NCBI GenBank assembly: GCA_029548865.1
Contig: JAKPMO010000015.1
Coordinates: forward strand, 10,482 to 74,481
DNA: 64,000 nt
Direction: 5' to 3'
Source of the DNA: Caldisericota bacterium
Lineage (GTDB): Bacteria > Caldisericota > Caldisericia > JAAYUI01
Part shown: positions 22 through 26,909 of the stretch, in pieces
Position numbering within the stretch: the first letter of the stretch is position 1
How the letters are laid out: each line of letters opens with the position of its first letter
The notes under the pieces: generated by a model
Seen by the model: only the letters and a program-made list of their open reading frames with translations
The model's database searches: none
What the model was told of the DNA's origin: nothing
Program-made: the position numbers and the translations under genes

Positions 22-1359
22 ATGACAGATCCAGCAAAAACACCTAAGGCGAAAGTGTCCTGGAAAGCAAAATGGATATTCTATACCTTGTTGATAGTCA
101 CCACAGTAATAATCGTAAATACCATTTCTTGCAATAAGAACAAAGCCTATAACGATAAAATACCCTATTCTATTGAGGTAAACGAAGCTCTTGGGGAAGT
201 CATACCGATTGACATATCAGCCAACATGTCTAATATGATGGTCCCACCATTCACAATTAACAAAAATGAATTAACCATATATTATGACTGGCGTTTAAAA
301 TCGGTTGCCAAGCATATAAAACTGCCAGGAGAGTATTTTGGATATTATCGACTTTATGTTATAGACGAAGATCAAGTTGATAACCCATTTATGATATACT
401 ATTTCTTTTTAAGCAAAACTCCTGATAATAATTACATATCTGTCTTGAAGCGTCCCGATAGGGAAGATTCTATTGGTGTTTATTTTGAGATGGAGAAGAT
501 TAAGGACATCTCAATAGGGGACCTGAATCTAATAGCTGTTGCAAAAAATGATGGAATAGAAAATTTCACATATGTTTGCCAGAACAAAAGCCAGACCAGC
601 GTGTCATTTTTTGATAAAAGTGGCATATTAAGAGAAAAAATGAACCTTCAGAGACCAACTGCCCTATCAAAATCCTTTGAACACGATAATGCATTAGACA
701 TCTATGGTTTTGACGGCAAAGATGTATTTTTCTATTCAATCGACAAGTACAGCTTGACCTTAAAACATAAAATCACCTTAAGAGACACTTATTCAAAAAT
801 ATTCAAGATATCACCCAGTGACAGACTCGTTGATGTCTGGAATAATTTGCAGTTATCTATATATGATGGGGAATATCTATACCTGCTTGATAATAAATAT
901 CTTAAAAAAACTTATAAATTTACCGATTTTAAAGGTTGTTCAATCGATCGCAGGTTCCTTTATGTCGATAACAAATTATTCTTCTCAGACATAAAAGATA
1001 ATATTTACAGTTTAAAGAGTAATGCTGACCAGTCTTACGTTAAAGACGGGGTTCTGGATACCAATAAAAAATTTGATCAAATATTTTCTTCAGGGTATGA
1101 TCTTATTCATTACTGCACAGGTTACTGGTCCGAGGAAGGCTATATATTCTCAATATATTATTACACAACTGACTCGCCTAAAAATGTTATATACAGGCAT
1201 AATTTTGGACCTTTCTCCAAAAAAATAACTTCTTTTTCTGAAGACAAGAGAACCCTGGTGCTATATAGCGAAACATTAATTTACTTTTATAATAAAGGCC
1301 CTGACTGGGAAGACGATCTTGAAATTATACCTCTAAATGAGAGTGCTTTAGATAAGTAG
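22..1359 (+). CDS. Membrane-anchored (N-terminal TM) Tyr/Asn/Lys-rich envelope protein, low GC. Member of a local paralog family sharing an 'LPGE(Y/V)' motif about 100 aa from the N-terminus.
   Basis: Complete ORF with GGGAGAG Shine-Dalgarno at 10-16 before the ATG at 22. Hydrophobic segment WIFYTLLIVTTVIIV. Motif KLPGEYFGYY at nt ~319-345. AT-rich codon usage unlike the neighbouring kinase gene. Confidence 0.5.
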   Translation: MTDPAKTPKAKVSWKAKWIFYTLLIVTTVIIVNTISCNKNKAYNDKIPYSIEVNEALGEVIPIDISANMSNMMVPPFTINKNELTIYYDWRLKSVAKHIKLPGEYFGYYRLYVIDEDQVDNPFMIYYFFLSKTPDNNYISVLKRPDREDSIGVYFEMEKIKDISIGDLNLIAVAKNDGIENFTYVCQNKSQTSVSFFDKSGILREKMNLQRPTALSKSFEHDNALDIYGFDGKDVFFYSIDKYSLTLKHKITLRDTYSKIFKISPSDRLVDVWNNLQLSIYDGEYLYLLDNKYLKKTYKFTDFKGCSIDRRFLYVDNKLFFSDIKDNIYSLKSNADQSYVKDGVLDTNKKFDQIFSSGYDLIHYCTGYWSEEGYIFSIYYYTTDSPKNVIYRHNFGPFSKKITSFSEDKRTLVLYSETLIYFYNKGPDWEDDLEIIPLNESALDK

Positions 1360-1648: not shown

Positions 1649-3304
1649 ATGGGTAGAATTCTTCTAGGAGCTGACTTCGGAACTTCCCAGGTAAATGTCG
1701 TGGCGCTTGATGTCAAAACTGGCCAGACAATAGGCTTTTCCTCATCACCATACAAATCCGGCGTGATCGAAAAAACACTTCCCGATGGCACAAAACTGCC
1801 CAGGGGTTTTGCCCTCCAGGACCCCTCCGACTGGCTGGAAGGGCTCTTTGAGGCCACAAAAAAACTGATCGAGGAAACCAGGATACCCGAGAAAGAGATA
1901 ATTTCCATCGGTGTCTCCTTCACAAGCTGCACTGTCCTTCCCGTTGATGTCTTTGGGACACCGCTTTGCATGATAGGCGACCTCTCAAAAAATCCCCATG
2001 CCTGGCCAAAGCTCTGGAGGCACACGACAGCACAGCCACAGGCCAATCTTTTGACCACAATCGCACAGGAGAGGGGCGAACCCTTCCTGGATTTTTATGG
2101 CGGAAAGATGGGCGCAGAGTGGCTCTGGCCAAAATTGCTGGAGCTTGTCCAGGAGGCACCGGAGCTTGTTCCGTCAATTGAATATTTCATCGAGGCAGGG
2201 GACTGGATTGTCTGGCAACTGACAGGCCATCAGGTCAGAAACCAGTGCGCGGCCGGATACAAGGCCTGCTGGGTCGAAGGTGTCGGTTATCCGGGTCACG
2301 ACTATTTTGCCTCGATTTCGCAGGAGCTGGCCGACCTCTCCGACAAGTCGAGGGGCATAGAGGTGCTGCCACCAGGAAGACCGGCCGGGAAGCTGATCAA
2401 GGACATGGCCGGGAAGATGGGCCTGAGGACTGGAATACCTGTCGCATCCGCAGTCATAGACGCCCAGTCTGCCGTCGCCGGCGCCGGTGTTTTCGAACCC
2501 AACATAATGACAATCGTGATGGGCAGTTCGAACTGCCACCTTGTCATGTCAAAACAGGAGAGGCTTTTTGTTGGATATGCAGGCGTCGTAAAAGACGGCA
2601 TCCTCGACGGATACTGGGGCTACGAGGCAGGCCAGCCGGCCATGAGCGACATGCTCGAATGGTTTGTGAACACCATTGCCCCAATATCGTTCTACGAGAG
2701 GGCAAACGAGGACGAAACCGAGTTTGCAACCATCCTGGACAGATACCTTTCCGAGGTGCCGGCAGGCTCAAACGGTGTCCTGGCGCTCGACTGGATGGGC
2801 GGCAACAGGAGTGTTCTTCTCGACTCGTCACTGAGCGGTGTTTTCGCTGGCCTGACGTTGCAGACAAGGGCCGAAGACATGTACAAGGCGCTGGCAGAAG
2901 CATCTGCATTCGGGACAAGAAAGATAATTGAAACATTCAGGGCTGGTGGCGTGGAAATCAAGCAGGTTGTCGCAACAGGCGCACTGCCAATCACCTCGCC
3001 CAGCCTCATCCAGATATATGCTGATGTATTGGGAATGCCAATCTCCGTTCCAGACACAAACAACGCAACCGGAAGGGGTGCCGCAATCATTGGCGGCCTG
3101 TCGGTCGGAATGGAAAAACTTGGCCATAAATCGCGGGAAAGCTATTTCAAGGCCCTGCTTCCACAAACCCTCGACTGGTGTAAACCACACGAGGCAAACA
3201 AGAAGCTTTACAACGAAATCTACAACGATTACCTGACGCTCCATGACATGTTTGGCGGGACCCAGAGGGTACTTGCAAGACTCAAGGAGAGGGGCAAGGT
3301 CTAG
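1649..3304 (+). CDS. FGGY-family carbohydrate kinase (ribulokinase-like pentulose kinase)
   Basis: 551 aa. The N-terminus LLGADFGTSQVNVVALD matches the FGGY N-terminal ATPase fold. Length and C-terminal glycine-rich region fit ribulokinase-type FGGY kinases. No araA/araD partner in the window. Confidence 0.8.
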   Translation: MGRILLGADFGTSQVNVVALDVKTGQTIGFSSSPYKSGVIEKTLPDGTKLPRGFALQDPSDWLEGLFEATKKLIEETRIPEKEIISIGVSFTSCTVLPVDVFGTPLCMIGDLSKNPHAWPKLWRHTTAQPQANLLTTIAQERGEPFLDFYGGKMGAEWLWPKLLELVQEAPELVPSIEYFIEAGDWIVWQLTGHQVRNQCAAGYKACWVEGVGYPGHDYFASISQELADLSDKSRGIEVLPPGRPAGKLIKDMAGKMGLRTGIPVASAVIDAQSAVAGAGVFEPNIMTIVMGSSNCHLVMSKQERLFVGYAGVVKDGILDGYWGYEAGQPAMSDMLEWFVNTIAPISFYERANEDETEFATILDRYLSEVPAGSNGVLALDWMGGNRSVLLDSSLSGVFAGLTLQTRAEDMYKALAEASAFGTRKIIETFRAGGVEIKQVVATGALPITSPSLIQIYADVLGMPISVPDTNNATGRGAAIIGGLSVGMEKLGHKSRESYFKALLPQTLDWCKPHEANKKLYNEIYNDYLTLHDMFGGTQRVLARLKERGKV

Positions 3305-3353
3305 CCCAATTTTCTGGTTTGTTTCCCTGCGTGGGTGTAAAAACAGGTCTATA

Positions 3354-3857
3354 ATGCGAAGCAACAAATCGGCCATTCATAAAGCAATCACTGCACTTTT
3401 GCTGGCACTTATTTTCCTCTCTTCATGCTCAAAAACCGCCACACCAGAAACTCCCCGGGTAGAAGAGCGAAAAGAACAGATTGGTCCTGTTTCAATTGTC
3501 GTCCCAAAAGGGTTTATCTGGCAAACTGTTGGCAACAGCAGCGCCACAATAAAGGGCGACTTTGAAATCAAGATTGAACTCTTTGACTGCCAGGGGCTGA
3601 AGGAAGGCGACCTTGACTCGCTCTCCCCAATAATACAAGAAATCACACAGGGACTCAAACAGGAAAAAGAAGTCCAGGTGGAAAACATCGGCGGCAAGGA
3701 GTGCATCACGGTCAATTCAAGCGGGGCAAAAAATGTCTTCTATGCGGCAATTTTCCCTCTCGAATCGCAAGTGGCAGCAATCTACACAAGCAAAATGCCG
3801 CTGAAGAAAACGGCAGACATGGCCATCCAGGTCGTAAGATCAACAACAACTTTTTGA
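3354..3857 (+). CDS. Lipoprotein (single-domain member of the tandem paralog array)
   Basis: Internal ATG start at 3354 gives MRSNKSAIHKAITALLLALIFLSSC, a signal peptide with lipobox LSSC. The upstream part of the tool ORF overlaps the kinase gene. Motif PKGFIWQTVG. Confidence 0.6.
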   Translation: MRSNKSAIHKAITALLLALIFLSSCSKTATPETPRVEERKEQIGPVSIVVPKGFIWQTVGNSSATIKGDFEIKIELFDCQGLKEGDLDSLSPIIQEITQGLKQEKEVQVENIGGKECITVNSSGAKNVFYAAIFPLESQVAAIYTSKMPLKKTADMAIQVVRSTTTF

Positions 3858-3892
3858 AACAAACGGCACCATTTTTGTGTATAATGCATGAC

Positions 3893-4396
3893 ATGAAAAA
3901 AATGTTTTTGGCCTGCCTGTGCCTCTTTGTTTTGGCCTCCTGCGGCGCCCCAAAAGTAGACAACCAGATACCTGAGGAGCTAAAATTCAAGTTTGATGGC
4001 GATCTTTTCGAGGTCTACTACCCGGATGGGTGGGAAACACTCTCCTCGGTTGGCGGCGGGGTCAACATCTTCAAAAAAGACAAATCCATTACAATTCCAT
4101 TCTCTATCTTCCCCTATGAAGGTTCCAGAGAAAACGACATATCAAGCATAGGCGAGCTGTCGCAGGCCTTTGAAAAAACGATAGGAAAAACAGGGCAGGG
4201 AACAATAGAAACCCGCGAAATATCCGGGAAAAAGGCACTCTGGATGGAGGGTGAAGTTGGCATGGGCAAAATGCAGGCCTTTATGGTTCCACTCGACAAT
4301 GCCGTGGTAAGTTGCATGATGTTCCCAGGAAAAGGGGCCAGTGCCGAGGACGCCAGACTTGCAGGGCTCATAGTAAAGAGCTTCCGTTTCAAGTGA
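3893..4396 (+). CDS. Lipoprotein (single-domain array member), ends ...KSFRFK
   Basis: MKKMFLACLCLFVLASCG lipobox. YYPDGWETL motif. C-terminal amphipathic motif shared with the other array members. Confidence 0.6.
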   Translation: MKKMFLACLCLFVLASCGAPKVDNQIPEELKFKFDGDLFEVYYPDGWETLSSVGGGVNIFKKDKSITIPFSIFPYEGSRENDISSIGELSQAFEKTIGKTGQGTIETREISGKKALWMEGEVGMGKMQAFMVPLDNAVVSCMMFPGKGASAEDARLAGLIVKSFRFK

Positions 4397-4403
4397 GGCG
4401 GAG

Positions 4404-5351
4404 ATGAAAACAACCAGAATTTTTGTGGCACTTTGTGCAATACTTACTCTTCTTTCCTGTGGAACTGAAGAAAAACCATTGCCTCTCACTGAAACATATT
4501 TTGGTCCCTTCTACAGGATCGACTTCCCAAAAAACGCAAAAATTGAGCCTGTCGGAAACCTCACAAGCATAGTCACCGACAAATTTGTTGTTGAGGTAAA
4601 ATTAGAGCCTTCAGAAGGCCTCAAGCCGGGGGATTTTGGGGGAGTGGCCTTTTTGAAAGAACAGTCCCAAAAAATGGCAGACGAGCTTGGGGCAAAAGCC
4701 AGCTTTAGAGAGGCAAAACTTGGTGACGCACCCTGCCTCGTAATCGATATGACAGGCGAGAATATCGCATGGAAAAGGATTTGCGTTCCACTAAAAAACA
4801 ACATAGCCATGGTATCACTCAAAGAGCCTTTCGAGGGTGAAAAAGCTGCCGAATCGCCATTTTTCAAATCGGCCTCGGACATGATCATTTCTTTCAGAAT
4901 AACAGACAGCTCCTATCTTGGCTCTGAAACACCATCTCAAAATGGCAATGGGGGAGAAATAAAACTTGAAACGCGCTTTGAAAATGAAAACCTCTCCATG
5001 ATGCTCCCGTCAGGCTGGGAGGCCGGTGGAGACGGCGTTGTGCTTGTTTGTCCAAAAGACATTGCAAAATTCGACCAGGGTTTTACGGTAACGGTCTTTG
5101 GAGAAAACAGGGACCCTAAAAGTGCCTGCCAGTCAATGTCATCATCACTTTCAGGCGGTACAATCCAGAAAACAAGGATCGGAGGGAACGACTACTGGAT
5201 GTTCGAGTACTCAGTCGGGCAGACCAAAATGGTTTCGATGTTCTCGGGGCAAAAAGGAAAGGTTTTTCTTCTGTCTTCAACATCTTTTAATGGAAAACCC
5301 TCCAGGATCGCCGAAAAAATAATTGGAAGCATGTCTTTCAAGCATCCATGA
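4404..5351 (+). CDS. Lipoprotein, two tandem copies of the array domain
   Basis: MKTTRIFVALCAILTLLSCG lipobox, 7-nt gap to the previous gene. Internal ISFRITD and terminal SMSFKHP motifs. MMLPSGWEAGG motif. Confidence 0.65.
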   Translation: MKTTRIFVALCAILTLLSCGTEEKPLPLTETYFGPFYRIDFPKNAKIEPVGNLTSIVTDKFVVEVKLEPSEGLKPGDFGGVAFLKEQSQKMADELGAKASFREAKLGDAPCLVIDMTGENIAWKRICVPLKNNIAMVSLKEPFEGEKAAESPFFKSASDMIISFRITDSSYLGSETPSQNGNGGEIKLETRFENENLSMMLPSGWEAGGDGVVLVCPKDIAKFDQGFTVTVFGENRDPKSACQSMSSSLSGGTIQKTRIGGNDYWMFEYSVGQTKMVSMFSGQKGKVFLLSSTSFNGKPSRIAEKIIGSMSFKHP

Positions 5352-5466
5352 CTCATTACTATTTTGTTGAGATTTTATTAAGCTTTTAACGTCTTGAAAG
5401 AACAAATTCGCTTCATATGATGTATGTGCTTTTGAAAATCCCAAAAGGACAGAGAGGAGTCTCAAC

Positions 5467-6060
5467 TTGAAGAAATTTTTCGCAACTTTTATCATACTGG
5501 TGCTTGGCGTTGCCGTTTTCGCATCCTGCGGTGGCGGATCAAATGACGAGGGCACAAAGCCAGCCGACGAAGGCCAGAACATAGAACAGACAGAGAACCA
5601 GACCGGAAGCCAGAACAACGAACAGACCCCGGCCGCAACATTTGCCAACTATGCCGAGACCAAGCTACTCAAAATTGGCATTGCCGAGGGTTGGAAAAAC
5701 AATACTCCCGAAGCACCAAAGGATCAGCAGAATGGTGATATAGACATAATATCGCTTATGAGTGATGATGGGAAGGCAATTACCGTAACAAGTGTTAAAA
5801 CCGGAGAAATCCCTGTCAAGATAGAAGATTTTGTTGAACAAATGAAAAAAAATCTGGTCGAAAGCAAGGCAACTTCAATTGAAGAAGGTAAAGCTTCCTA
5901 CGCAGGCATTGACTACACTACACTTACTTTCAGCGTAGAAAACAACAAAGCAATAAGTCTTTTCGGAATTAAGGGTAACCAGGTTATCAATATTAGCCTT
6001 AATGGCACCGATATTGATGCCGAAATCGAAGGAATGCTCAATTCAGTCGAAACAAAGTAA
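5467..6060 (+). CDS. Lipoprotein, one array domain preceded by a Q/N/E-rich low-complexity linker
   Basis: MKKFFATFIILVLGVAVFASCGGGS lipobox, followed by a rho-independent terminator. Confidence 0.65.
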   Translation: MKKFFATFIILVLGVAVFASCGGGSNDEGTKPADEGQNIEQTENQTGSQNNEQTPAATFANYAETKLLKIGIAEGWKNNTPEAPKDQQNGDIDIISLMSDDGKAITVTSVKTGEIPVKIEDFVEQMKKNLVESKATSIEEGKASYAGIDYTTLTFSVENNKAISLFGIKGNQVINISLNGTDIDAEIEGMLNSVETK

Positions 6061-6080
6061 GAACCATTTTAAAGAACCAA

Positions 6081-6118
6081 CAAAAAAACCGGCTCAAAAC
6101 AGCCGGTTTTTTTGTTTT
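6081..6118 (+). terminator. Rho-independent terminator (CCGGCT...AGCCGG followed by a T-run)
   Basis: Hairpin ~6089-6106 followed by TTTTTTTGTTTT. Confidence 0.6.
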
Positions 6119-6172
6119 AATGACCTTTGACAAGCCAATTTTTGGGACTACTTTTTATGCGGAGGAATTTGA

Positions 6173-7126
6173 ATGAAGAAACTTGTTGCTTTTTTGCTGT
6201 TGGCCCTCTTTGCCATTTCCTGTGGCGGACAACCACCCACAAAACATGATGGCGGATGGTTCGAGATAGAATATGACCAGGGCATGAAAACTCTTGCCGA
6301 GGGTGATACATTCATGGTTTTTGATGATGAAATATTTATGAAAGTCCAGCCAAACATGGACTATTCAAACACCGAGAAGATTGAGGTCGCAAGACAATCT
6401 GCAAAACAACTCGTGGAGAGCATGAGCAAAGATACATCAAACACCGTGACCGAAAGGGAAAGCAAATGCGGCTCGATTCCATGTATCTGGGTTGAAGTTG
6501 AAAACAAAAACCAGGGCACAGGCGGCTTGATAATGTATGTACCAATACAAAATGTCGTTGTGTGGGTGGGCCTGGCACAACCAGTTAATCTTAAAACCGG
6601 CATGGACAAAGCCAGAAGAATTGCCGAAAGCTTCAGGATCAAGGACGAGGGTTATTTCAAAAACAGGGTGGAAGATTTCGCCAAGAATTACAATGTCAAT
6701 GGATCATCAAAGACAATCGAAACTGAGACATTCTCTATAACACCAGCAAAAGAGTGGGCAGGGGAAAAAGACCTGAAAAACAGCAATGTCAGGTTGCGCC
6801 TGCTTCCTGACAGCACAAAAGCAAAACAGACACCCTACGCACCAAACATAGAGGTTGGGATCATGGACAAAGGGCAAATGGCACTGGAGGAGTTCCTGGA
6901 ATCATTCAAAAATGCAATGGTAAACAAAGACAAGGTCGCTGGCCCAAAACCGTTCAAGTTTGCCGAAATGATGTATTACAGGTATGATTTGCCAGCAAAA
7001 AAAGACGGTGCCCCACTTATGTATATTGTTGGCGAAAAAGATGGCAAGATAATAAAAGCCCTGATTGCAGGGGAATTAAGCGGAGACATCGAAACGATGC
7101 TTGAAAGCATCAAGATAAAAAAATAA
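6173..7126 (+). CDS. Lipoprotein, two array domains (internal ...ESFRIKDEGYF, terminal ...ESIKIKK)
   Basis: MKKLVAFLLLALFAISCGG lipobox. GGAATTTGA-ATG context. Confidence 0.65.
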   Translation: MKKLVAFLLLALFAISCGGQPPTKHDGGWFEIEYDQGMKTLAEGDTFMVFDDEIFMKVQPNMDYSNTEKIEVARQSAKQLVESMSKDTSNTVTERESKCGSIPCIWVEVENKNQGTGGLIMYVPIQNVVVWVGLAQPVNLKTGMDKARRIAESFRIKDEGYFKNRVEDFAKNYNVNGSSKTIETETFSITPAKEWAGEKDLKNSNVRLRLLPDSTKAKQTPYAPNIEVGIMDKGQMALEEFLESFKNAMVNKDKVAGPKPFKFAEMMYYRYDLPAKKDGAPLMYIVGEKDGKIIKALIAGELSGDIETMLESIKIKK

Positions 7127-7138
7127 GGAGAGAAAAAA

Positions 7139-8092
7139 ATGAAAAAACTCCAAAACATTCTGCTGACAGTCATCATAGGGTTGACCCTTATTTCATGCGG
7201 AAAAACCACACTGGACGAAACTTATGAAGGGCCCTATTTCAGCATAAGCCACCCGGGTTCCTGGAAGGTCGAGGAAAATCCGTCTCTGACAACAATCAGT
7301 GGGGACGGCGTTGGAATAATGATCGAGTCCGTTCCAAACGAGCAAATAAAAGCAAATGATGTTGCCGAGATCAAGACATATTCAGACCAGCTCCTCAAAG
7401 AGCTTGGTGGAAACGAGGACTTCGACCTCTCAACCGAGGAGAAGGAAATAAATGGCCAGAAGGGTGTCTGGCTCTTGGCAAAGAGCAAGAAGGAAGAAAA
7501 GGGCGGGTTTATGTTCATTACGGCCGTCGACAAGGCCGTCCTCATGGTTGGTGTTGGCGCGGAGGTCGAAGGGCAGGAGAAGCTCGATCTTGTAAAAATG
7601 GCCATTGAGTCCTTCAAGATAACAAAACCTGACTACTTCACAAAAAAAGAGCCTGAAAAAAAGGACACCGAAACCACTCCAAAAACCGAAGAGACAAAAT
7701 TTGGCCAGCCGCTTGTGGCAGAAAAAATTACAATCACACCGCTTGAGGGTTGGACTTCCAAATATGAAAAACTCACCAGTACAATAACATTAACAAATGC
7801 GGCCAACAGAACGTTCTCGATGGTGATACTTGATCGCCAAGGAATGAAAAAGGACGACTATACAAAAAGCTTAAGAGAAGGCCTTAAGCAAAGTGCTGAT
7901 TTGAAGGTAAAAGAATCAACCGAAAAAATTGGTGAAATCGAATATGACAGGATTGATTTTTTGACAATGGATGGCAGAACCGCTATGACCGACCTTGTTG
8001 GAGAAAAAAACAACATCATGATAGTGATAATGATCCAGGATGGTCTCTCAAGCGACATACAAAAGATGCTTGAAACTATAAAAACAAACTAG
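7139..8092 (+). CDS. Lipoprotein, two array domains (internal ...ESFKITKPDYF, terminal ...ETIKTN) with a K/E/T-rich linker
   Basis: MKKLQNILLTVIIGLTLISCG lipobox. AGGAGAGAAAAAA-ATG ribosome-binding site, 12-nt gap to the previous gene. Confidence 0.65.
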   Translation: MKKLQNILLTVIIGLTLISCGKTTLDETYEGPYFSISHPGSWKVEENPSLTTISGDGVGIMIESVPNEQIKANDVAEIKTYSDQLLKELGGNEDFDLSTEEKEINGQKGVWLLAKSKKEEKGGFMFITAVDKAVLMVGVGAEVEGQEKLDLVKMAIESFKITKPDYFTKKEPEKKDTETTPKTEETKFGQPLVAEKITITPLEGWTSKYEKLTSTITLTNAANRTFSMVILDRQGMKKDDYTKSLREGLKQSADLKVKESTEKIGEIEYDRIDFLTMDGRTAMTDLVGEKNNIMIVIMIQDGLSSDIQKMLETIKTN

Positions 8093-8113
8093 GCCACAAT
8101 TTCCCTGCTGCAA

Positions 8114-8147
8114 CAAAATGCCCTCTCTTTTGAGGGGGCATTTTTTA
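8114..8147 (+). terminator. Probable rho-independent terminator after the lipoprotein at 7139-8092
   Basis: ATGCCCTC...GAGGGGGCAT imperfect hairpin followed by TTTTTT. Confidence 0.5.
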
Positions 8148-8272
8148 TGGATAAAAATCACGATATGGGATGTATGATGTATTGATGCGACTAAACCATC
8201 ACTTAATTGTTTGGATAAAATACGATGTTGACATATATAGCTATGATTGCAAAATAGGTCTCTTGGAGAACA

Positions 8273-9316
8273 ATGATGAACATATCAAGAAGATTACATA
8301 ACACACCCGCTTTGGTCTTTATATCAGTCTGCGTCATGCTTTCTTCGTGCGGCAAATCTGCGCCTGCGCTGGACAAAACCTTTGAAAACAGCCATCTTTC
8401 AATCGCCTACCCGTCTTTATACCAGGTGGCAGAGAAAGACAACGTGGTGTTTATAAAATCAGAGAATGTCGAATTTTCTATAACTTACGCCCCCGATGCC
8501 TCATCAAAAACTGGCGACACAAGCTCGATAAATCAGCTCGTTTCCTCGCTTACCCAGACACTGACAGGCAAAATAATCAAAAATGAACCAGTAGAGCTTG
8601 AAAAAAATAAAATATGGTGGATTGAAACACAAAATCCGGAATCAGTAATAGCCCTGTTCCCGTTTGATGGCATTGTCTATAACATCCAGCTCACCCAGGG
8701 CGATTACGAAAATCAGGTCATCGAAACCGCCAGCAACATGGCAGCAAGCTTTGTTGCAAAAATAACAAAAATAGAAAAGCAAGCACCATCAGGAAACGGT
8801 GGCAAAACAACAGACCCGCAAAACCCATCTGGCCAGCAAACCTCTACCGATCCGGAAAAAAAGCCGACAGGCGGCAATGAGCCAGTAGGCAAACCAGATG
8901 TTGAAGTTCCGAACAAGCTCCCAACTGGCGAGTCTTTCGAAAATGATTATTTCAAGATAATCCTCCCAAAAAACTGGACAGTAGAAAAAACAACGGACAT
9001 GCTCATCACCCTTTTCCCGCCAGACAAGACACAGGGGAGCATCATGATTGCCACTCAGACTGGCAACACAGAAAAGGCAGAGAACATCGCCAAAATAATG
9101 ACCTCCTCAATTGAAGGAAGCACAACTCCCGTTTCCGTACAGCTTGGCTCAGGCATCGGTTACCAGTTTGTCTACTCCGATGGCGGAATAAAACAGGTCC
9201 AGACGGTTTACACAAAAGACGACAAATACTATGCTATAACCTATGTCCAGAACAAACAGGGTGTTGATCTTAAGCAGGATTATGACAGCCTTCTCCTATC
9301 GCTCTTTGCTAAATAA
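8273..9316 (+). CDS. Lipoprotein, two array domains separated by a Gly/Pro/Thr/Gln-rich linker
   Basis: ALVFISVCVMLSSCGKS lipobox. GGAG 4 nt before ATGATG. Motifs LSIAYPSLYQV and FKIILPKNWTVEKT. Confidence 0.6.
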   Translation: MMNISRRLHNTPALVFISVCVMLSSCGKSAPALDKTFENSHLSIAYPSLYQVAEKDNVVFIKSENVEFSITYAPDASSKTGDTSSINQLVSSLTQTLTGKIIKNEPVELEKNKIWWIETQNPESVIALFPFDGIVYNIQLTQGDYENQVIETASNMAASFVAKITKIEKQAPSGNGGKTTDPQNPSGQQTSTDPEKKPTGGNEPVGKPDVEVPNKLPTGESFENDYFKIILPKNWTVEKTTDMLITLFPPDKTQGSIMIATQTGNTEKAENIAKIMTSSIEGSTTPVSVQLGSGIGYQFVYSDGGIKQVQTVYTKDDKYYAITYVQNKQGVDLKQDYDSLLLSLFAK

Positions 9317-10562
9317 ATTCCCGGCGATAATCCTCGCCATACTGTTTCTTGCAGGCTGTGGCGGCGGGGCAGTTACCATAGAGACAAACCCAAAGGGTGG
9401 AACAATCATCTTTGAAGGCAAGGAATATACTTCTCCAGCACAGCTTGAGCTTGAAGAAGGTGTCCACAAGATAGAAGCAAAGGTAACGGGGTACCTGCCA
9501 GCACAGGAAGAAATCCTGTACAAAAAAGGGCAGGGAGACAGATTTGTAATCAGCCTCTCAAAAGAACCTGTTGAATCAGACTCAATAAAACCCGTTCTGG
9601 TAGACAAGGCCGTCAGGATAAGGACTTCCCCAAAATCGACAAACAGCTTTCTCTATGTTTATGATCCATTAACTGGCAAAATCGGCAAAGAGCTTGATCT
9701 GGAGACAACACCAATACAAGGTGACTGGGAAAAGATGTGCAGGATTTCCGGTGTCCCGGGAGACTACAACCATCTCTCAGGTCTAGTGGTATTGAAAAAT
9801 GGCGAAGCGTACGGGGCTGTCTATTTAAGGCTGAATGCTGACCCGGCCATCTCGCTTTCCCTCATTGAAGACGGCTGGAAAAAACCATCAGTAAAACCAC
9901 AGCAATTGACAGGCGAGACCAAACAGGAAACCGTCACCCCAAAAAATGATGGCAGTAAATTCACCCTTTTCTCCGGAACAAAAGAAATTGCAAGCTACAC
10001 TGGAAAAGCAAGATTCCTCGGAAAATCAATGGGTGTAAATATTGTTTACACCTACGTTGACGATCAGGGAAGGCAAAAACTGCTCCTTGATGATGGCACC
10101 AAAACAAAAATCCTCTGGGAAGGCGAATACGGGCTTGGTGTTTTCAACCACATAAAAAAACAGGCCTCACCAGTCTGTTTTCTCGGAAATGGCCTTGTTG
10201 CAGCAGCGCTTGCCACAGAAACTGGCTACTCAATTGCTGTTTTTGATACCACTTCCGGGCAGGCAAAATTCTTTGAACCCCTGAAGCGCTTTCCTACAAA
10301 CATAACCGCCATAAAGTATTCTGGCTCGGTGGCCCTGAAAATGACGTTTTCGAATGGCCTATCAAAGACAATCACGGTCCTTCCCGATGGAAGCAAGCTT
10401 GAGATACCAGAAGAAATTGCAAATGCCAGCTTTTATGATTCAGACGGGACATGGCTTGATGCCGGAAATGGATACATCGAACACAGGTTCTGCGAGGGCC
10501 TTTCGGCCTTCATCAAGAAATTTGGGGAAAGATATGTAGTGGTCTGGGCAGGCAAGCCCTGA
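9282..10562 (+). CDS. Lipoprotein with an N-terminal PEGA domain, last gene of the array (start uncertain)
   Basis: Start at the internal ATG gives MTAFSYRSLLNKFPAIILAILFLAGCGG (lipobox LAGC). GGGAVTIETNPKGGTIIFEGKEYTSPAQLELEEGVHKIEAKVTGYLPAQEEIL fits the PEGA pattern. This start overlaps the previous gene by 35 nt; an alternative TTG start lies at 9300. Confidence 0.5.
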   Translation: MTAFSYRSLLNKFPAIILAILFLAGCGGGAVTIETNPKGGTIIFEGKEYTSPAQLELEEGVHKIEAKVTGYLPAQEEILYKKGQGDRFVISLSKEPVESDSIKPVLVDKAVRIRTSPKSTNSFLYVYDPLTGKIGKELDLETTPIQGDWEKMCRISGVPGDYNHLSGLVVLKNGEAYGAVYLRLNADPAISLSLIEDGWKKPSVKPQQLTGETKQETVTPKNDGSKFTLFSGTKEIASYTGKARFLGKSMGVNIVYTYVDDQGRQKLLLDDGTKTKILWEGEYGLGVFNHIKKQASPVCFLGNGLVAAALATETGYSIAVFDTTSGQAKFFEPLKRFPTNITAIKYSGSVALKMTFSNGLSKTITVLPDGSKLEIPEEIANASFYDSDGTWLDAGNGYIEHRFCEGLSAFIKKFGERYVVVWAGKP

Positions 10563-10574
10563 TTTTATCAATAT

Positions 10575-11453
10575 CTACTGTTCACTGACAATCAAACCGA
10601 GTCCTGCAAGCGAAACTTGGGCAATCTCAGAAAATAGAAGCACCGAAAATGATGCCCAGGGCTGCACATCAAAACCATCAAAGACAACCGATAATTTTGT
10701 GTTCTCGCCCTCTTGGAAAAAGGAGAACCTTAAGGAAAGCGGAGATGCTGGTGAGAAAGGATTGTCTTTTGCAACAAGCGTTATCCTGTCGCTTTCAAAT
10801 TCAGAAACAACCCCATGAAGCAAAATATTTCCCCATGGCCTCTGCCATGCAATCTGGAACTGGCCGCTCTCCCTGGCTTCAATCTGGACCATGTCGGCAA
10901 GCCACTTCACGGCCTCATCGGCACGCAAAAGCATCGACCTGAGAGTGTCTGGTGTCGCCTTTATAATTGTTGATGCCTCGATTGATCTTGTGCCAGAAAC
11001 ACATTTTTCAGGCTCTTTTCCAAAAAACTTTGTCAACATGGCCATTTTTGTGTAGGCCCATGATGAGGCGGAAAGCAGGGGGGCGTCCCCGGTGTGCGTC
11101 AGATCAAACCCTGACAATTTGAGCTTGCATATCTCCCCAAATTCGAACTGTACGGCTAACTCGAAGAGGTCAGGCCTGTGGTGCCACGGATTGCCCTCAA
11201 AAATTGCCTTCAGGCTCTCATACTGCCTGGATTCCTGGGTTTCTATATGCCACGAGGCCGAGAAACTTGGTTCAAGGCCCCATATTTGCCCTTCACAGCC
11301 TTCAATTGTTGAAATTTCCAGGCCCTCACCCCAAGCCCTGGCAAGTTTGGCCTTGTCATTAAATAACTCCCAGACTGTCGGCACGAGGATGCCAAGATTT
11401 GAGACCACTTCAATTGAGCGCTGGCCCTGGGGCCTGTAGAAGCCCTTTGTCAT
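10575..11453 (-). CDS. Cytoplasmic protein, possibly SRPBCC/AHSA1-like tandem-domain fold (low confidence)
   Basis: 292 aa, no signal peptide. Its start overlaps the upstream transglutaminase-like gene stop by 4 nt (ATGA). Confidence 0.45.
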   Translation of the reverse strand: MTKGFYRPQGQRSIEVVSNLGILVPTVWELFNDKAKLARAWGEGLEISTIEGCEGQIWGLEPSFSASWHIETQESRQYESLKAIFEGNPWHHRPDLFELAVQFEFGEICKLKLSGFDLTHTGDAPLLSASSWAYTKMAMLTKFFGKEPEKCVSGTRSIEASTIIKATPDTLRSMLLRADEAVKWLADMVQIEARESGQFQIAWQRPWGNILLHGVVSEFESDRITLVAKDNPFSPASPLSLRFSFFQEGENTKLSVVFDGFDVQPWASFSVLLFSEIAQVSLAGLGLIVSEQ

Positions 11454-12202
11454 ATCATTCTCAATCTCGATACATTCTTTGTGATCGATGGCGAAACAAC
11501 TGTCGAAAAAATAAAGGACTGTACCTTCTTTGGTATGTGTTCAGCAAAAATTTCTTCCACGTTAGTATGAACACCAAGATCCTCAAGAACACATGTGGAC
11601 TGGCAGAAAGTGTCACTCTCGCCATCCCAGTTCTCTATGTCTTTTGAGAGAACAAGGAGCGGCCTCTTGTCTGCAACCCCAAGACTGAAGCATGGCCTGT
11701 CATCATTGAGTATTGTTGAAAGCTTTTCCAGATACATCCTGTCCAGGACAACCCCCTCAAGCGTTATCCACCTGCCCTTCAGGTGGATTTCTGGCATGAG
11801 GTGGACCATGGTCTTCGGAACAAACCTCTCGACGATACCCACATAAAGCCCCTTCAGGTACGAGCTGTCGGCGATGGAAACCTTGAACCTCGCTGGTATC
11901 CTGGCAAGTCTCATCATGGAGACAAGGCAAACGGATTTTGAAACCGAGTCCCCGCCACCTGTCGCAAGTACTTGCGACGCCTTGGTCAAGATTGACGGCG
12001 GCAACATGAAAACCAGGTTGTCTTTGACAAAATGGTAGATCACTCTTGCGGCGTCATTTGGATTTGTTACACCGCCCAGTATCGATTCGGTCATCTGCAC
12101 GACGGACTTTGAAGACAGGTCGCAAAGCTCCGATTCCTCAAGATACTCCCCAAAACCGACAGGGCCCTCCCATGGTAAACTCAACAAATCAAGCGTCTTC
12201 AT
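11450..12202 (-). CDS. Transglutaminase-like cysteine-protease superfamily protein
   Basis: Motif GGGDSVSKSVCLVSMMRLARIPARF matches the transglutaminase-core Cys nucleophile region followed by R(L/A)xGIPAR. The ATG at 12202 sits next to GGAGG; the tool ORF extends 5' from a TTG. Confidence 0.55.
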   Translation of the reverse strand: MKTLDLLSLPWEGPVGFGEYLEESELCDLSSKSVVQMTESILGGVTNPNDAARVIYHFVKDNLVFMLPPSILTKASQVLATGGGDSVSKSVCLVSMMRLARIPARFKVSIADSSYLKGLYVGIVERFVPKTMVHLMPEIHLKGRWITLEGVVLDRMYLEKLSTILNDDRPCFSLGVADKRPLLVLSKDIENWDGESDTFCQSTCVLEDLGVHTNVEEIFAEHIPKKVQSFIFSTVVSPSITKNVSRLRMI

Positions 12203-12361
12203 CCTCCCTAATTTATCCCCCAAGCTGGATAAGTTCAAGTGGACCCGTGCAAAACCAAGATTCTTAAAGCAATGACAAATGCTGTTCCATAAAGCATTCT
12301 GAAGTGTCCAAAAAAACATATCCTGTTTTTCCGTGTCAAAAATGCCATGGAAAGGAGTATT

Positions 12362-13572: not shown

Positions 13573-14892
13573 CTATTTTTCTTCATATTCTGGCCCAAGA
13601 TCCATCTTGATAAGATCGTATTGGCCTTCTGCTGTATTCATGTAGTCACATTCCCAAACAGAATCTTCTGTGTAAAAATAGATTTTGTATGAGAGAAACA
13701 GAACGTTTACAACTTTTCCAGGGATTTCCCTGTAAGAATGTTTTCTAAACAATCTATTTTGGTTATCCCGGACTGTTTGCATATCATAGACCAACGTGGA
13801 ATCTGGATTGTATTGGCAAAAGTAATAAAGACTGATATCCGGAGTCCGTACATATGACAATGGTTTATAATCAACCTCGAACAATCTACTTGCAATAAAA
13901 TCTCCAGCATTATTCATACGGCTGTCAAATACACGCTTAGTACTTATATAAAACATAGCATTACTACCAAAATAGAACTCGTAATCAAGTTGCTTTGTGA
14001 AAGTTGTATCCAGGAACTCTCTTGAATAAATTACTGATTTATTGAATCTATCTATAAGATGGATCGCTTTACCATCATACAGACTGAAAAGCCAACCATA
14101 ACCATATCCCTCAAGGCTATTCAAATCATTAATTACACTCTTTGTTAAATCACCTTCCGTTCCCAGGTCTATTTTAAAATCAACAAGTAACTGGCCATCA
14201 ACAAACTTGTAAAAATAAACAATTTTGCCATCGTATCCGACCATTGTTGGTGACGTAGGGCTGAATTCGTTGTATCTCAGATCTGCAAAAAGCATTGGTG
14301 ATTCAAGAGATTTTATATGCCCTGTTTTCCCCCACGGATCACTTAGATAAAGCAACTTATTGTCATTTGACTGGCAGACAAGCAGAGCTTTATGATCCTT
14401 GTCATTATGAGAAATTGATATTATTTTATCAGCTTTTGTTGAGAAACTGGCTGATTTTGTCTCGTTTGCATTACCTTTTATTAGATTAGAATAATCAAAC
14501 TGATATAGAACAATTGTATTAGAGGTGTTGCCGCGACACAAGAATACTAAATAGTTTTTATCGTACTCACTATTGTGATATCCCCCAGATTCTGTCGTGG
14601 TTGTTGAGTTATTTTTTAGGGAATATGACAAAACTTCACCAGGCAGGTTGATTGTTTTGACTGGTTGCTGCAACAGTGGATCTTTGTATGTTGTTACCTC
14701 TTGGTCATTTACGAGTATTGGAAAAAACAATTCACGATGAACCTTTCCCTCATCGCTCAAGATACCAATTATTTTCCCTGGAGGTCTCTTATCGGACACA
14801 AGTTTGACCTCATATGGTTTTGCAAAGGAACAAGATGAGCAAAACAAAAATATAACCCCAAACAAAGATAATCCCCTGGACATTTTTTTCAT
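13573..14892 (-). CDS. Secreted Tyr-rich protein, low GC, LPGE-motif family member
   Basis: Signal peptide MKKMSRGLSLFGVIFLFCSSCSFA. Motif NLPGEVLSY ~85 aa from the N-terminus. Strongly AT-rich relative to the flanks. 19 nt downstream of the membrane protein gene at 14911-15888. Confidence 0.55.
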   Translation of the reverse strand: MKKMSRGLSLFGVIFLFCSSCSFAKPYEVKLVSDKRPPGKIIGILSDEGKVHRELFFPILVNDQEVTTYKDPLLQQPVKTINLPGEVLSYSLKNNSTTTTESGGYHNSEYDKNYLVFLCRGNTSNTIVLYQFDYSNLIKGNANETKSASFSTKADKIISISHNDKDHKALLVCQSNDNKLLYLSDPWGKTGHIKSLESPMLFADLRYNEFSPTSPTMVGYDGKIVYFYKFVDGQLLVDFKIDLGTEGDLTKSVINDLNSLEGYGYGWLFSLYDGKAIHLIDRFNKSVIYSREFLDTTFTKQLDYEFYFGSNAMFYISTKRVFDSRMNNAGDFIASRLFEVDYKPLSYVRTPDISLYYFCQYNPDSTLVYDMQTVRDNQNRLFRKHSYREIPGKVVNVLFLSYKIYFYTEDSVWECDYMNTAEGQYDLIKMDLGPEYEEK

Positions 14893-18317: not shown

Positions 18318-19661
18318 ATGGACGGGGAAATGGAAGAGAAAAAACAGTTAGGATGGAAGGCAATTCTCAAGGAAATGCTTAAGCTAGTTCTTATTTTTAT
18401 ATTCATAATAACAACTGGGATTACCCTGATTGCTCTATGCTCTACGAATACAGACAACGACTTTTTTAACAAAATTAGAGAATTTTTCCAGCCAAAATTT
18501 ACCTATAAAGATTTTGCTCGACTTCCAAATACCAGCTTTTTGTTCAACCAACAATATCTGGGAGTGCTTGAGGTGGAGAATGATTTGACAGAATACATCG
18601 GCTTTGGAGATATCTTTCATCCAGTTTATTCATCTGGCAACAAGATTTTGATTTATCAGGACCAGAACCTTGAACAAGTTGCAAGAGAAATTGAACTCCC
18701 TGGGAATGTAATTGGTAAATCATTTGTTTATTTCTACGATAAAGACAATTCTAGCGCCAGCAATTGGCAATACTACTTTTTGACCCAAAATAATGGCAAG
18801 AATCATATCACAGCTTTCTTGAGCAACAGGTCTAACAATGAGCCACAATATGATCTTCAGCAAAAATTTTCAATTGAGACAAAGGGGACAAAGATAGTTC
18901 CGATAGAAGATTTTGATAATTTTCTTGCGTGCATAGATAATGAAGGCAAGACACTAACTGTTTACAAATCCAGTGGAGAGGTTTTTTGCAATAAAACATT
19001 TGCCAAAAAATCTGCATTTTTCATGATTGGCAAAAATGTTGTCCAATATGATGGCCAGAAGCTGGTTTTATTCACAATTGACAAAAATGATGTTCTCCAG
19101 AAAACAAGCATTTTACTGCCTGATAAAGGGGACGTCTCCAAAGCATCACTTGATGGTGAGAAACACTCAGAAAAGACGTGCTTTACAGACGGTTCAAATG
19201 CGTATTATCTTGATGAATATTTCAACTATATCGAGAAAGCCCCCTTTAAGGATGTGGAGAAATCCCTTTGTGAAGGAGATTTCCTTGTCTGCAAAGATAA
19301 ACTTGTGTCCAATATTCTATTTTCAAATACAGACACTGGCAACAAACCCCACTTCTACACTTTCGAATCTTCAACAGTTTTCAATGACAGGTTCAATTAT
19401 GCACTGCCTTTATTATATTGTTACAAAGTTTTTATGTTGGTAAAAAATAACCTGTTCACATTCTCACCGGTATTTGTATGGAGCAATATAAGAGAAAATC
19501 AAAAAGTGACATATTATGTTTACAGGATGCAAGGTACCCCATTTGGAAGGGTGAAAGGTTTCTTTTTGAAAAACCACAGTGAATTGTTCAAAGTATACGA
19601 GGTCGCATATTTTTATACGGACCACGGGGTCTACCGCTTCAAGGAAGTGACAGAAGACTAA
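18318..19661 (+). CDS. Membrane-anchored Tyr/Phe/Lys-rich protein, LPGE-motif family member, low GC
   Basis: N-terminal TM LVLIFIFIITTGITLIAL. Motif EIELPGNVIGKSFVYFYD. Confidence 0.5.
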   Translation: MDGEMEEKKQLGWKAILKEMLKLVLIFIFIITTGITLIALCSTNTDNDFFNKIREFFQPKFTYKDFARLPNTSFLFNQQYLGVLEVENDLTEYIGFGDIFHPVYSSGNKILIYQDQNLEQVAREIELPGNVIGKSFVYFYDKDNSSASNWQYYFLTQNNGKNHITAFLSNRSNNEPQYDLQQKFSIETKGTKIVPIEDFDNFLACIDNEGKTLTVYKSSGEVFCNKTFAKKSAFFMIGKNVVQYDGQKLVLFTIDKNDVLQKTSILLPDKGDVSKASLDGEKHSEKTCFTDGSNAYYLDEYFNYIEKAPFKDVEKSLCEGDFLVCKDKLVSNILFSNTDTGNKPHFYTFESSTVFNDRFNYALPLLYCYKVFMLVKNNLFTFSPVFVWSNIRENQKVTYYVYRMQGTPFGRVKGFFLKNHSELFKVYEVAYFYTDHGVYRFKEVTED

Positions 19662-19959: not shown

Positions 19960-22900
19960 CTAGTAGTATCTGGTCATCGTTATCGTCTTCTCGTCGCCGT
20001 TCCACTGCACCTCTGCGCCAAGCGCCTCGGCTATGAACCTGAACGGGAGGACTGTCCTGCCGTCTTTTATCAACGGCGGCTGTTCAAGCTGGGAGATCTT
20101 TCCATTCACAATGGCGACCTTCGAGCCGATTGTCATCATGATCAGGTCCTTGCCAAGGGTTATGGTCACCTGCTTGACCTGGGCATTCCAGTCCACTTTT
20201 GCGCCAAAGGCCTGGGCAATCGCCCTGACAGGCACAAGTGTCCTGCTGGTTTGCGGGTCAACATAAGGTGCCACATCGAGCTTGCTTATCTGGCCATCGA
20301 CAAGCATAACATCGTTTCCTATCTTCATCTGAACCAGCTTTATCTGCCAGTTGTACAGCTCAAGGGTCGGCCTGGACTGGTTGCCAAGGGCATCGGTTGC
20401 CTCAAACTTGAATGTGTTTTTGCCAAGCACAAGATCGAGTGTGACCACAAACTTGCCCGGCCCGACTTCGATGATTTTTCCATCAATGGCCAGCTTTGCT
20501 TTCTCGCTGGCATTGCCTTCAACCTCAACCTGCTTTGCATTCACAAGCTTTGTTTTCGGCTGGACAAATTCAACCACTGGCGGGGTCGTGTCTTTTGTGA
20601 TGGTGATCTTCTTGGAAATCTTTGTGCCAACAGGATTGGCGGCAATGACTTCGATTTCGTTTACACCTTCCTTGAGTGTGACAGTGACAAAGAACACGCC
20701 ATCAGCGCCAACGCTCACCGGGTTTCCACCAACAGAGACCACTGCCTCGGAGTTTGTCTTGCCCCTGATTGTTATCTGGTCTTCTTTTGTAAGAGATGGC
20801 ACCTCTTCAATCTCAAGAGGCGGCGGGGCGACAGGTGAAACAACTTCTATTACCTGCGGGTTCACCGTTATGTATGTTCCGCTGTCCAGCCTGGCGACTA
20901 TCTTGCCTGGCTTTGTCGGTAGGACATCAAATTCAACTTCACCCTTTGGCCCTGTCTTGGCCTCCATCATGACGCCTGCTCCTTGCACCGTTACAGTGAC
21001 ATTGGAGAGTGGCGCCCTGGAGGCAACGTCTTCAACCGTGACGGCGATCTTCTTCTGGAGTCCGGGGTAGAAGGTGCCGGCATAAACAACATTGAGGCTT
21101 GCGCCCTTTGCAACATCAAACTCAAGCGACTTGCGGGCTATGACAACGTCTTCCCCGAATGTGGCCTTTGCCTTATAGCTGAGGGTTGCAACCGATGTGC
21201 CGGTGTTGCTTGTCGGCGTGTAGTGGACAATGGCCTCGGAGGCCTTTGGGTCAACCTTGCTCTGGGTGGTCTCGACGCTGGTTTTTACTTCAGACTTTGC
21301 GCCCACGCTTGCGACTTCAATTATTCCACCAGGCTTTATCGGGTCCGTTTCCTTCTGACATGCTGGCGTCACCCTTGCCACAAAAACATTGTCGGTGCCA
21401 TAGGCAAGGTCGTAATTGGAAGGCGACAGGAACCCTGTGGAAAGCTCATCGCCGACGTTCTGGTCATAGAGCCTTATAACAGGCTGCTTTATCGGAACAT
21501 TGGTTACTGTCGGGGTGTCCCAGTCGAGTGCAAATGTGCCATCGCCCTTGTACCTGAGGAGCGGATTGAAGGCCATCGACTGTGATCTTGGGGCATCGCC
21601 GGCAACATCTCCCTTGATGACCGATGCCTTGTTGGCACCGAGCAGGCCGCCAACCATAAACACCTGGTCAGCAAAGACGTAGAAGGTAACATTTCCATTT
21701 TCATCCGGGTTGAGCGAATCCTTGTAGTCAATCCTCGAATCACCGTTGAAATCAGAGAAGAAGTAGTTGCCTGCGATCTCGGAGTTGTACACGCAACCCT
21801 TGCCCCAGCTCTTCAGGTCTATTGTTGAGCCATCGAGCTTTGCGCTCGTCTTGCATCTTACAGACATTGGCTTGACAAGGTTTGAAGTGGAAGAGATTTC
21901 GCCTGTTGATGAAATCCCGAACCTGTTGAAATAAGTCAATTTTTCCGGATCAGCGCCGGCGTCAAGGACAAGGAACGGGGTAAACCTGATAAAATCTGTC
22001 GAAGAGCCATACTTGCCCGGCAGTTTTGACGAGCCCTTGAGCAGCTGGCCCTGTGCGTCCTTGAGTGTTGCAACAACCTTGTAAACGCGGCGGTCAAGGC
22101 CGGTCATGCAGGCCTCTGGTTCCTCCGGCCACTTCATTGTGACAGCATCGCCTGTTGCCACGTTGGTTATCGAATAGGTAACCTTTGGTCTTGCGACCTT
22201 GATTGAACCTACACCCCAACTCTTGTAGTCGGACGAGCGTACTTTTATCTGTATTTCACCCTCGTCATTGGCCACAAAACCTGTGAACTTGTATATGCCT
22301 TTGGAGGCCTGCGAGAAATCGTAGCCTATCGGCTTGAACTCGCCAAACAGGTGCTCATTGTCCGATATTGTGCCATCTTTGTTGCGCAGTGAGGTCACTG
22401 TCCAGTAATAGGCACCAACACGTTCCGGTCTGGCATCAGATATGAAGCTGACTGCCTCTTCCGGCTTCAGCTTCCCACCCTTGGTTAGGTCGACCGGCCT
22501 GCCGTTTATGTCCTTTATGGTAAAGGTCAGTGGCTGGTTCGAATTGACAACCTCGGGGGAAACGCCCGCAGTCACAATGCCTGGATTGACTTCAATGATG
22601 ATGTTGGGGTCCTTTGATACCCCGCCACCTGGCTCCGGATACATGCTTACCTGGCCGGCAAGGTAAACCTCGTGCGAGTAGTACTGCCTGGTTCCAGGGA
22701 CGTTCCAGAGAGGGGCAAAGCTCCTGTCGTTGTTATCATCATAATATTTGTAAACGGTCAGATTGACCGGCAATCTTTCGTCCTCTGCAATAACATGGTC
22801 ATTGTTGAAATCAAGGCCGGCATCTTCAATCCTGCAGCCGTTTGAAAGGCTCATGTCAAAGACATACCTGCCGTTGTTGCGCTGATAAGTCCTTGCATCA

Positions 22901-26784: not shown

Positions 26785-26909
26785 CTTGAAACTCCTTTCG
26801 ATGCATTCATGGCTGATTTGCTTCAAATACACGAAATCTTGGGGTCAAGTTCAAAATTGGGGAGGGTGCTGATGTCTTGATAAAAAATAGAATCTTTTTT
26901 TGAAGACAA

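Follow-up and report, generated by a model that had tools for sequence, protein, structure and literature searches.

The closest described systems are lipid-anchored proteins with a PsbP-like fold. The lipoprotein CyanoP binds assembly modules of photosystem II (PSII) at their lumenal face (PMC8038367), DcrB is a cytoplasmic-membrane lipoprotein involved in inner-membrane homeostasis and lipoprotein maturation (PMC9487459), and LpqN interacts with MmpL3 and MmpL11 (PMC7458404). Here we describe an array of eight predicted lipoprotein genes, G1 to G8, in a 64-kb stretch of DNA from a Caldisericota bacterium (contig JAKPMO010000015.1, positions 10,482 to 74,481; the whole stretch is referred to as the window). 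Open reading frame (ORF) calling on the window placed the eight genes consecutively on the + strand at positions 3354-10562. Seven of them are paralogues built from 11 copies of one module, for which a Mog1p/PsbP-like fold is predicted, and the eighth encodes a PEGA-domain partner. The array is an old locus whose gene order recurs across Caldisericota, and public records label its proteins as hypothetical only.

The coordinates given below use the most plausible start for each ORF, and ribosome-binding sites are present for the array genes. We distinguish N-type modules, which begin 5 to 15 residues past the predicted lipid-bearing cysteine, from C-type modules, which are carried on disordered low-complexity linkers of 20 to 50 residues.

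3354..3857, + strand: G1, predicted lipoprotein of 167 residues (Cys25) with one N-type PsbP-fold module, residues ~38-167 (3465-3854)
3893..4396, + strand: G2, predicted lipoprotein of 167 residues (Cys17) with one N-type module (3968-4393)
4404..5351, + strand: G3, predicted lipoprotein of 315 residues (Cys19) whose N module (4482-4883) is joined through an S/G/N-rich linker to a C module (4950-5348)
5467..6060, + strand: G4, predicted lipoprotein of 197 residues (Cys21) with a Q/N/E-rich tether of ~40 residues and a lone C-type module (5638-6057)
6079..6116, bidirectional: palindromic hairpin between G4 and G5, resembling an intrinsic terminator, its perfect 16-bp stem lying between an A-run and a T-run
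6173..7126, + strand: G5, predicted lipoprotein of 317 residues (Cys17) with two modules, N (6236-6652) and C (6698-7123)
7139..8092, + strand: G6, predicted lipoprotein of 317 residues (Cys20) whose N module (7208-7633) is joined by a disordered, K/E/T-rich linker to a C module (7694-8089)
8121..8146, + strand: terminator-like hairpin 3' of G6, CCCTC-N6-GAGGG plus a T-run
8273..9316, + strand: G7, predicted lipoprotein of 347 residues (Cys26) with an N module (8363-8770), a G/P/T-rich linker of ~50 residues and a C module (8921-9313); the gene overlaps G8 at its 3' end
9282..10562, + strand: G8, predicted lipoprotein of 426 residues (Cys26) with a PEGA domain at residues ~30-93 and a C-terminal region of ~330 residues

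The original prediction, a reading of the DNA letters made before any database search, had proposed eight paralogous lipoproteins sharing a recurrent module. We compared 11 candidate modules of ~135 residues each (G1, G2, G3N, G3C, G4, G5N, G5C, G6N, G6C, G7N and G7C). All were joined by Smith-Waterman z-scores of 6 to 16 against shuffled sequences, for example 16 for G5C-G6C, 15 for G3N-G6N, 10 for G3C-G7C and 6 for G4 against G3C, G5C and G6C. The G1 module aligned with G2 and G3N at z=10-15 and was also matched by a hidden Markov model (HMM) of the module, and G5 and G6 were collinear from end to end (E=3e-15). Moreover, profiles of the N and C modules, each enriched with orthologues beforehand, aligned with an hhalign probability of 96.7% (E=4.3e-10, 126 columns). 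Cross-alignment of the modules, named in advance as the test able to refute the proposal, therefore came out in its favour (z 6-16; N versus C profile E=4.3e-10). Within the window, the HMM built from the 11 modules matched G1 to G7 only. The array observation is real and far beyond chance, and paralogy holds for seven of the eight genes.

G8 is the exception. Smith-Waterman comparison gave z of at most 3.7 for all of its segments, hhalign gave 0.1% and the module HMM found nothing; a hidden, diverged module copy in G8 was rejected on these values. The original prediction had the last gene swapping in a PEGA domain. The domain is there (PF08308, residues 30-93, 25.5 bits against a cut-off of 20.8, E=1.2e-5; 21.9 bits in the L011 orthologue), while the idea of a swap on a paralogous chassis fails at the hhalign value just given. 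Neither Pfam nor PDB sequence searches, including a G8 profile against the PDB, matched the remaining ~330 residues. By these comparisons, G8 is an unrelated, better conserved partner gene and not a paralogue of G1 to G7.

Signal peptides were assessed with a PROSITE PS51257-type rule, which requires K or R in the n-region, then a hydrophobic core, and a lipobox whose cysteine falls at position 15-35. All eight proteins pass it, with the cysteine at position 17-26. The lipoboxes read, from G1 to G8, LSSC, LASC, LLSC, FASC, AISC, LISC, LSSC and LAGC, so that the lipobox proposed for all eight genes is found in each of them, and the consensus L[SA][SGI]C is only approximate (FASC, AISC and LLSC also occur). 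The same lipobox is seen in most close relatives, and when 23 family members are aligned, its cysteine is the one column that never varies.

An AlphaFold2 model of the G6 N module, made from an alignment of the 11 window modules only, had a predicted local distance difference test score (pLDDT) of 92.5 and a predicted template modelling score (pTM) of 0.87. Full-length mature G6 was modelled at pLDDT 83 as two domains of the same topology: five strands, a helix, four strands and a helix. The predicted structure has the features of the Mog1p/PsbP-like fold, namely an alpha-beta-alpha sandwich around a central antiparallel sheet, a strand-rich N-terminal half, a long helix, a four-strand meander and a C-terminal helix. 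Foldseek matched it to PsbP (1v2b; E=2e-6, template modelling score 0.69-0.71). All of the C-terminal motifs listed in the original prediction (KSFRFK, ISFRITD, ESFRIKD, ESFKITK, ESIKIKK and ETIKTN) are present and form, in the model, the end of the last helix and a short terminal strand. The upstream element F.I..P.gW, likewise present, corresponds to the second strand and the turn after it. The low-complexity linkers (Q/N/E-, K/E/T- and G/P/T-rich) were also borne out.

By sequence, the placement is less direct. G1 to G7 gave nothing above threshold against Pfam and no match in NCBIfam. The best Pfam match in these proteins was that of G2 to PsbP (PF01789), at 14.9 bits against a cut-off of 23.5 (E=0.029); G1 and G3 to G7 had no relevant Pfam match at E<=1, and the thresholds of PsbP_2 (PF18933) and DcrB/DUF1795 (PF08786) were not reached either. 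PDB sequence searches with the module profiles returned nothing significant. An exhaustive profile search with the 11 window modules recovered 139 representatives at E<=1e-3, with one to five modules each. Pfam matches among them were to PsbP (45), PsbP_2 (40), DcrB (17) and LpqN (PF10738; 3), and a G7 orthologue (P0012) clears the PsbP cut-off with 35.9 against 23.5 bits. As far as these searches go, the link from the window modules to the curated PsbP, PsbP_2 and DcrB families is transitive, running through relatives. The PsbP/DcrB-like fold that had been suspected is upheld by the Foldseek match and by these relatives, and we consider it very probable that the modules of G1 to G7 belong to the Mog1p/PsbP-like fold superfamily, within which they form a new, uncurated and diverged subfamily.

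Array proteins recur in metagenome-assembled genomes (MAGs) labelled Caldisericales or Caldisericia, chiefly from anaerobic digesters, and all close relatives with a taxonomic placement are Caldisericota/Caldisericia MAGs. One public record of the G6 protein (P0001) is labelled Candidatus Moranbacteria; the contig-level evidence all points to Caldisericales, and the label probably reflects faulty binning or labelling of that MAG. Word-indexed homologue searches yielded three distant relatives and otherwise only ones at >=87-90% identity, a search with a 5-sequence alignment only three close Caldisericales genomes, and a metagenome scan with a G8 alignment only two close loci. The whole array is syntenic in three related species, in which most array proteins are 81 to 97% identical and the kinase encoded upstream 98%; G4 identity drops to 68-76% in two of the three. 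The ratio of nonsynonymous to synonymous substitution rates (dN/dS, ω) was 0.04-0.38 across all eight genes (G1 0.21-0.29, G2 0.04-0.12, G8 0.10-0.15), with 0.02-0.04 for the kinase gene and about 0.1 for neighbouring envelope genes. Purifying selection acts on all eight genes, and G2 is the best conserved of the module proteins. Strong positive selection was rejected at the whole-gene level (ω<0.4).

The upstream kinase, an FGGY carbohydrate kinase (1649-3304, + strand), is 55-59% identical in two more distant loci, L012 and L015. Where the kinase has diverged this far, the array proteins are 22-44% identical, and the gene order G1-G2-G3-(G4)-G5/6-G7-G8 recurs. In L012 (FGGY 59% identical), FGGY is followed by an extra 466-residue gene, G1-like, G2-like (44%) and G3-like genes, a 309-residue gene, and G6-like, G7-like (36%) and G8-like (39%) genes. 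In L015 (FGGY 55% identical), it is followed by G1, G2, G3, G4, an extra single-module gene, two G5/G6-like genes, G7 and G8. The window array ends at two convergent, - strand genes, 10575-11453 and 11450-12319, which overlap by 4 nt and encode a 292-residue AHSA1/SRPBCC-domain protein and a transglutaminase-core protein. The same pair, 36-44% identical, closes the L015 array and also that of L017, where it follows a three-module G7-like gene and G8. L010 (a 2.2-Mb contig) and L011 each hold eight consecutive lipoprotein genes, the last two being a three-module G7-like gene and G8, with a G2 orthologue just upstream on the opposite strand.

Orthologues can be traced gene by gene. Those of G1 occur in L012 and L015, those of G3 are full-length in L012 (E=1e-27) and L015, and those of G2 are 34-44% identical in L010, L011, L012, L015 and L016. 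G8 orthologues, 28-39% identical, close every array; G7 orthologues (30-36%) always lie directly upstream of them, and the two genes overlap by 1 to 35 nt in every lineage examined. In total, intact orthologues are found on at least nine independent contigs and in four deeply diverged lineages. The array is thus an ancient, fast-evolving and largely collinear locus with one-to-one orthologues and G8 as a constant partner. A DNA repeat search of the array revealed nothing beyond 35 nt of similar sequence shared by the 3' ends of G5 and G6; there has therefore been no recent DNA-level duplication, and the paralogy is old. Of the lineage-specific expansion originally proposed, the restriction to Caldisericota stands for the close relatives that could be placed, and a recent burst does not, given one-to-one orthologues at 55-59% FGGY identity.

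L016 differs from these loci in holding a three-gene array of the same lipoprotein family (2241-5846; 308, 168 and 320 residues) beside a gene for a CAP-domain protein. Its 168-residue protein is 43% identical to G2, and no PEGA partner accompanies it, so that the family is not confined to the canonical locus.

G4 varies in a manner of its own. Its signal peptide and Q/N/E-rich tether are near-identical among strains, and its module (5638-6057) is only 56-68% identical in L005, L007 and L009. The variable region has a sharp boundary and small indels, and in L005 the G3 and G5 genes that flank the divergent G4 are 100% identical to those of the window. Because the boundary between the near-identical tether and the divergent module is sharp, the change looks like allelic replacement of the module by recombination.

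The intergenic gaps from G1 to G7 measure 35, 7, 115, 112, 12 and 180 nt, followed by the 35-nt G7/G8 overlap, and replace the 7 to 110 nt first reported. The two internal terminators were located as claimed, at 6079-6116 after G4 and 8121-8146 after G6. Since these terminator-like hairpins lie inside the array, the sequence suggests three transcription units: G1-G4, G5-G6 and G7-G8. G4 starts at a TTG codon with AGGAG 8 nt upstream. Rfam detected no regulatory RNA above threshold in the array; its sole sub-threshold match, Thr_leader, coincided with the G4/G5 terminator hairpin, and a riboswitch or leader was accordingly dropped.

As the likeliest reading, with a probability of roughly 45%, we take the array to be a vertically inherited Caldisericota envelope locus in which tethered, non-enzymatic PsbP-fold modules serve as adaptor or binding modules alongside a PEGA lipoprotein. 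The near-invariant positions of the module are occupied by G, P and S in structural motifs, and no catalytic-type invariant residues were found in the module family alignments. The seven lipid-anchored proteins would display 11 Mog1p/PsbP-fold modules on the outer face of the cytoplasmic membrane, with N-type modules next to the membrane on short tethers and C-type modules further out on disordered linkers. As a tethered adaptor, each paralogue would have an extracytoplasmic docking partner of its own, which could be a membrane-protein complex or else a lipid or glycan of the envelope, and would stabilise, assemble or hand over this partner. G7 and G8 would probably work as a pair. The lipid-anchored PsbP-fold proteins CyanoP, DcrB and LpqN behave in this way; the adaptor mechanism, drawn from fold and anatomy only, is a tentative proposal, possible rather than probable. 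The chaperone-like or substrate-binding role suggested in the original prediction is likewise conjectural.

Several points weigh against this assignment. We infer the lipidation and topology of G1 to G8 from their sequences, and the binding function and its partners from the fold. No membrane complex, transporter or enzyme is conserved beside the array in all lineages, and no partner was identified. The PsbP fold alone does not fix function, as it is also found in toxin-immunity proteins and cytoplasmic chaperones. In the two-module G6 model, the linker has pLDDT <50 and the pTM is 0.53, so the modules are modelled as beads on a string whose mutual orientation is undefined. For G8, ~330 residues have no assignable fold. 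Finally, Caldisericota may be either monoderm or atypical diderm, which leaves the compartment uncertain as well. Caldiserica have been discussed among lineages with outer-membrane loss (bioRxiv 10.1101/2021.05.31.446380); if this holds, the array products would be wall-zone lipoproteins of a monoderm.

Alternatively, the eight products could build a single Caldisericota-specific envelope layer or scaffold as the structural subunits of a hetero-oligomer. The lineages share a fixed gene order and stoichiometric composition, the G7/G8 overlap in every lineage suggests coupled synthesis, and Pfam PEGA is typical of surface-layer-type proteins. The charges are complementary as well, with isoelectric points (pI) of 4.5-5.2 for the N modules and 8.4-8.7 for G3C, G5C and the G8 C-terminal region. 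However, the two internal terminators imply at least three transcription units, and gene content does vary: L012 lacks G4, L015 has an extra single-module gene, and the G7 orthologues of L010 and L017 have three modules. We regard such a layer as unlikely. A version in which the products form one Caldisericota-specific envelope machine, with a proximal N-module layer, a distal C-module layer and G8 as organiser, seems to us unlikely to the same degree. It would loosely resemble the CyanoP-Ycf48 pair of lipoprotein assembly factors, and handling of lipid, lipoprotein or a wall polymer is one possibility for what it does.

Equally doubtful is a role as surface lipoproteins that capture a ligand or substrate (a nutrient, a polymer or a surface for adhesion) and feed uptake, possibly together with the FGGY sugar kinase. 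The kinase gene lies directly upstream of the array on the same strand, with a 50-nt gap and no terminator called between them, and it adjoins the array in L012 and L015 too. Yet no FGGY gene stands beside the array in L010 and L011, and none of the arrays contains an ABC transporter, permease or glycoside hydrolase. Wall-spanning lipoproteins of monoderms typically have long low-complexity tethers, but the 5-15 residues that tether most N modules hold them too near the membrane for them to extend to the cell surface. The fold family does take in the secreted mycobacterial binding proteins Apa and MTC28, and the window is rich in giant surface proteins; the PsbP fold, however, is not known as a class of solute-binding proteins.

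It is still less probable that each product is an immunity lipoprotein that neutralises a different secreted antibacterial toxin outside the cytoplasm, like Tsi3 and TplEi/Tli4. The modules match TplEi and Tsi3 in fold, and tandem arrays of diverged paralogues are common for immunity genes. The sharp allelic replacement of the G4 module between otherwise near-identical strains would fit as well, as would the fast evolution of the array proteins relative to their neighbours (22-44% against 55-59% identity for FGGY). Against this, gene tables of the window and six related loci contain no effector, type VI secretion system (T6SS), Rhs, polymorphic-toxin or mobile-element gene, and PADLOC gave no match. 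Immunity islands typically turn over, whereas this array has collinear one-to-one orthologues across deep divergence under purifying selection (ω 0.04-0.38), and every array ends in the same PEGA partner, which is not immunity-like. With PADLOC blank, a defence-system reading was dropped too, and there is no evidence for either a toxin-immunity or a defence role. Lastly, the absence of Pfam or NCBIfam matches above threshold for G1 to G7 and their hypothetical status in public records might suggest chance open frames or decaying pseudogenes, an idea refuted by conservation and selection (dN/dS well below 1 in 8/8 genes; intact orthologues on at least nine contigs and in four deeply diverged lineages) and further opposed by confident AlphaFold2 folds and ribosome-binding sites.

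Around the array, the window holds the following features.

22-1359 (+), 13573-14892 (-) and 18318-19661 (+): members of a second Pfam-less paralogous family of ~440 residues, with 22-23% mutual identity
12347-13507, + strand: a 386-residue lipoprotein with PQQ-like repeats that adjoins the array
19960-26832 and 56852-63901, both - strand: giant proteins of 2290 and 2349 residues, paralogous surface proteins as judged by eye
32620-34788, 34956-38795 and 39078-43391, all - strand: PQQ-like beta-propeller repeat proteins of up to 1437 residues
52773-52864, - strand: tRNA-Ser (anticodon GGA), the only tRNA of the window

The ~440-residue copy at 22-1359 is absent or replaced in L005 and L006 and 36-64% identical in L007-L009. 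The 2290-residue protein contains a 26-residue run that is all glycine but for one serine, and its C-terminal repeats resemble, by eye, the copper-amine-oxidase N-terminal domain.

The analysis assigns a fold and a probable class, that of tethered, non-enzymatic extracytoplasmic adaptors, to seven hypothetical proteins that lie outside every curated family. It also defines a Caldisericota-specific PsbP/Mog1 subfamily with multi-module architectures and identifies G8 as its conserved PEGA partner. The seven genes take up about 6 kb of a small genome, and their order is fixed throughout a phylum of which little is known. Should the products work jointly, the locus would give access to the envelope biology of a lineage from which only one species has been cultured, and a hetero-oligomeric machine, if true, would represent a new envelope system within a phylum near the diderm/monoderm transition. 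Otherwise, the locus is an ordinary, if well-documented, old cluster of paralogous lipoproteins.

Among known proteins of this fold, the EagR/EagT6/SciW chaperones are cytoplasmic, lack a signal peptide and are encoded beside T6SS effectors, unlike the window proteins. The immunity proteins TplEi/Tli4 (5h7y) and Tsi3 (4luq) differ from the window array in that it has no adjacent effector, T6SS or sequence-level match to them, and in that it is not variable but keeps its collinear order through stable inheritance. Two further proteins, BT_1490 from Bacteroides thetaiotaomicron (3hlz) and 3lyd from Jonesia denitrificans, are uncharacterised, with 9-10% identity. DcrB (formerly DUF1795; PF08786; PDB 6e8a) is a single-copy, single-domain protein, and no window protein matches PF08786. 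The mycobacterial LpqN, LpqT, MTC28 and Apa (PF10738; PDB 6e5d, 4pws, 5zxa) are also single-domain proteins, and only 3 of the 139 relatives of the window family match PF10738. Paralogues of the LpqN group are, as far as is known, dispersed rather than gathered in one collinear array, and the window locus, unlike that group, has no MmpL-type transporter. CyanoP (PDB 2xb3; PF01789) shows a sequence identity of 12%, and none of the window proteins reaches the Pfam PsbP threshold. Caldisericota are anaerobic non-phototrophs, and gene tables of the 64-kb window and the related loci list no photosystem genes. In contrast to CyanoP, the window module is duplicated both within proteins and over seven genes.

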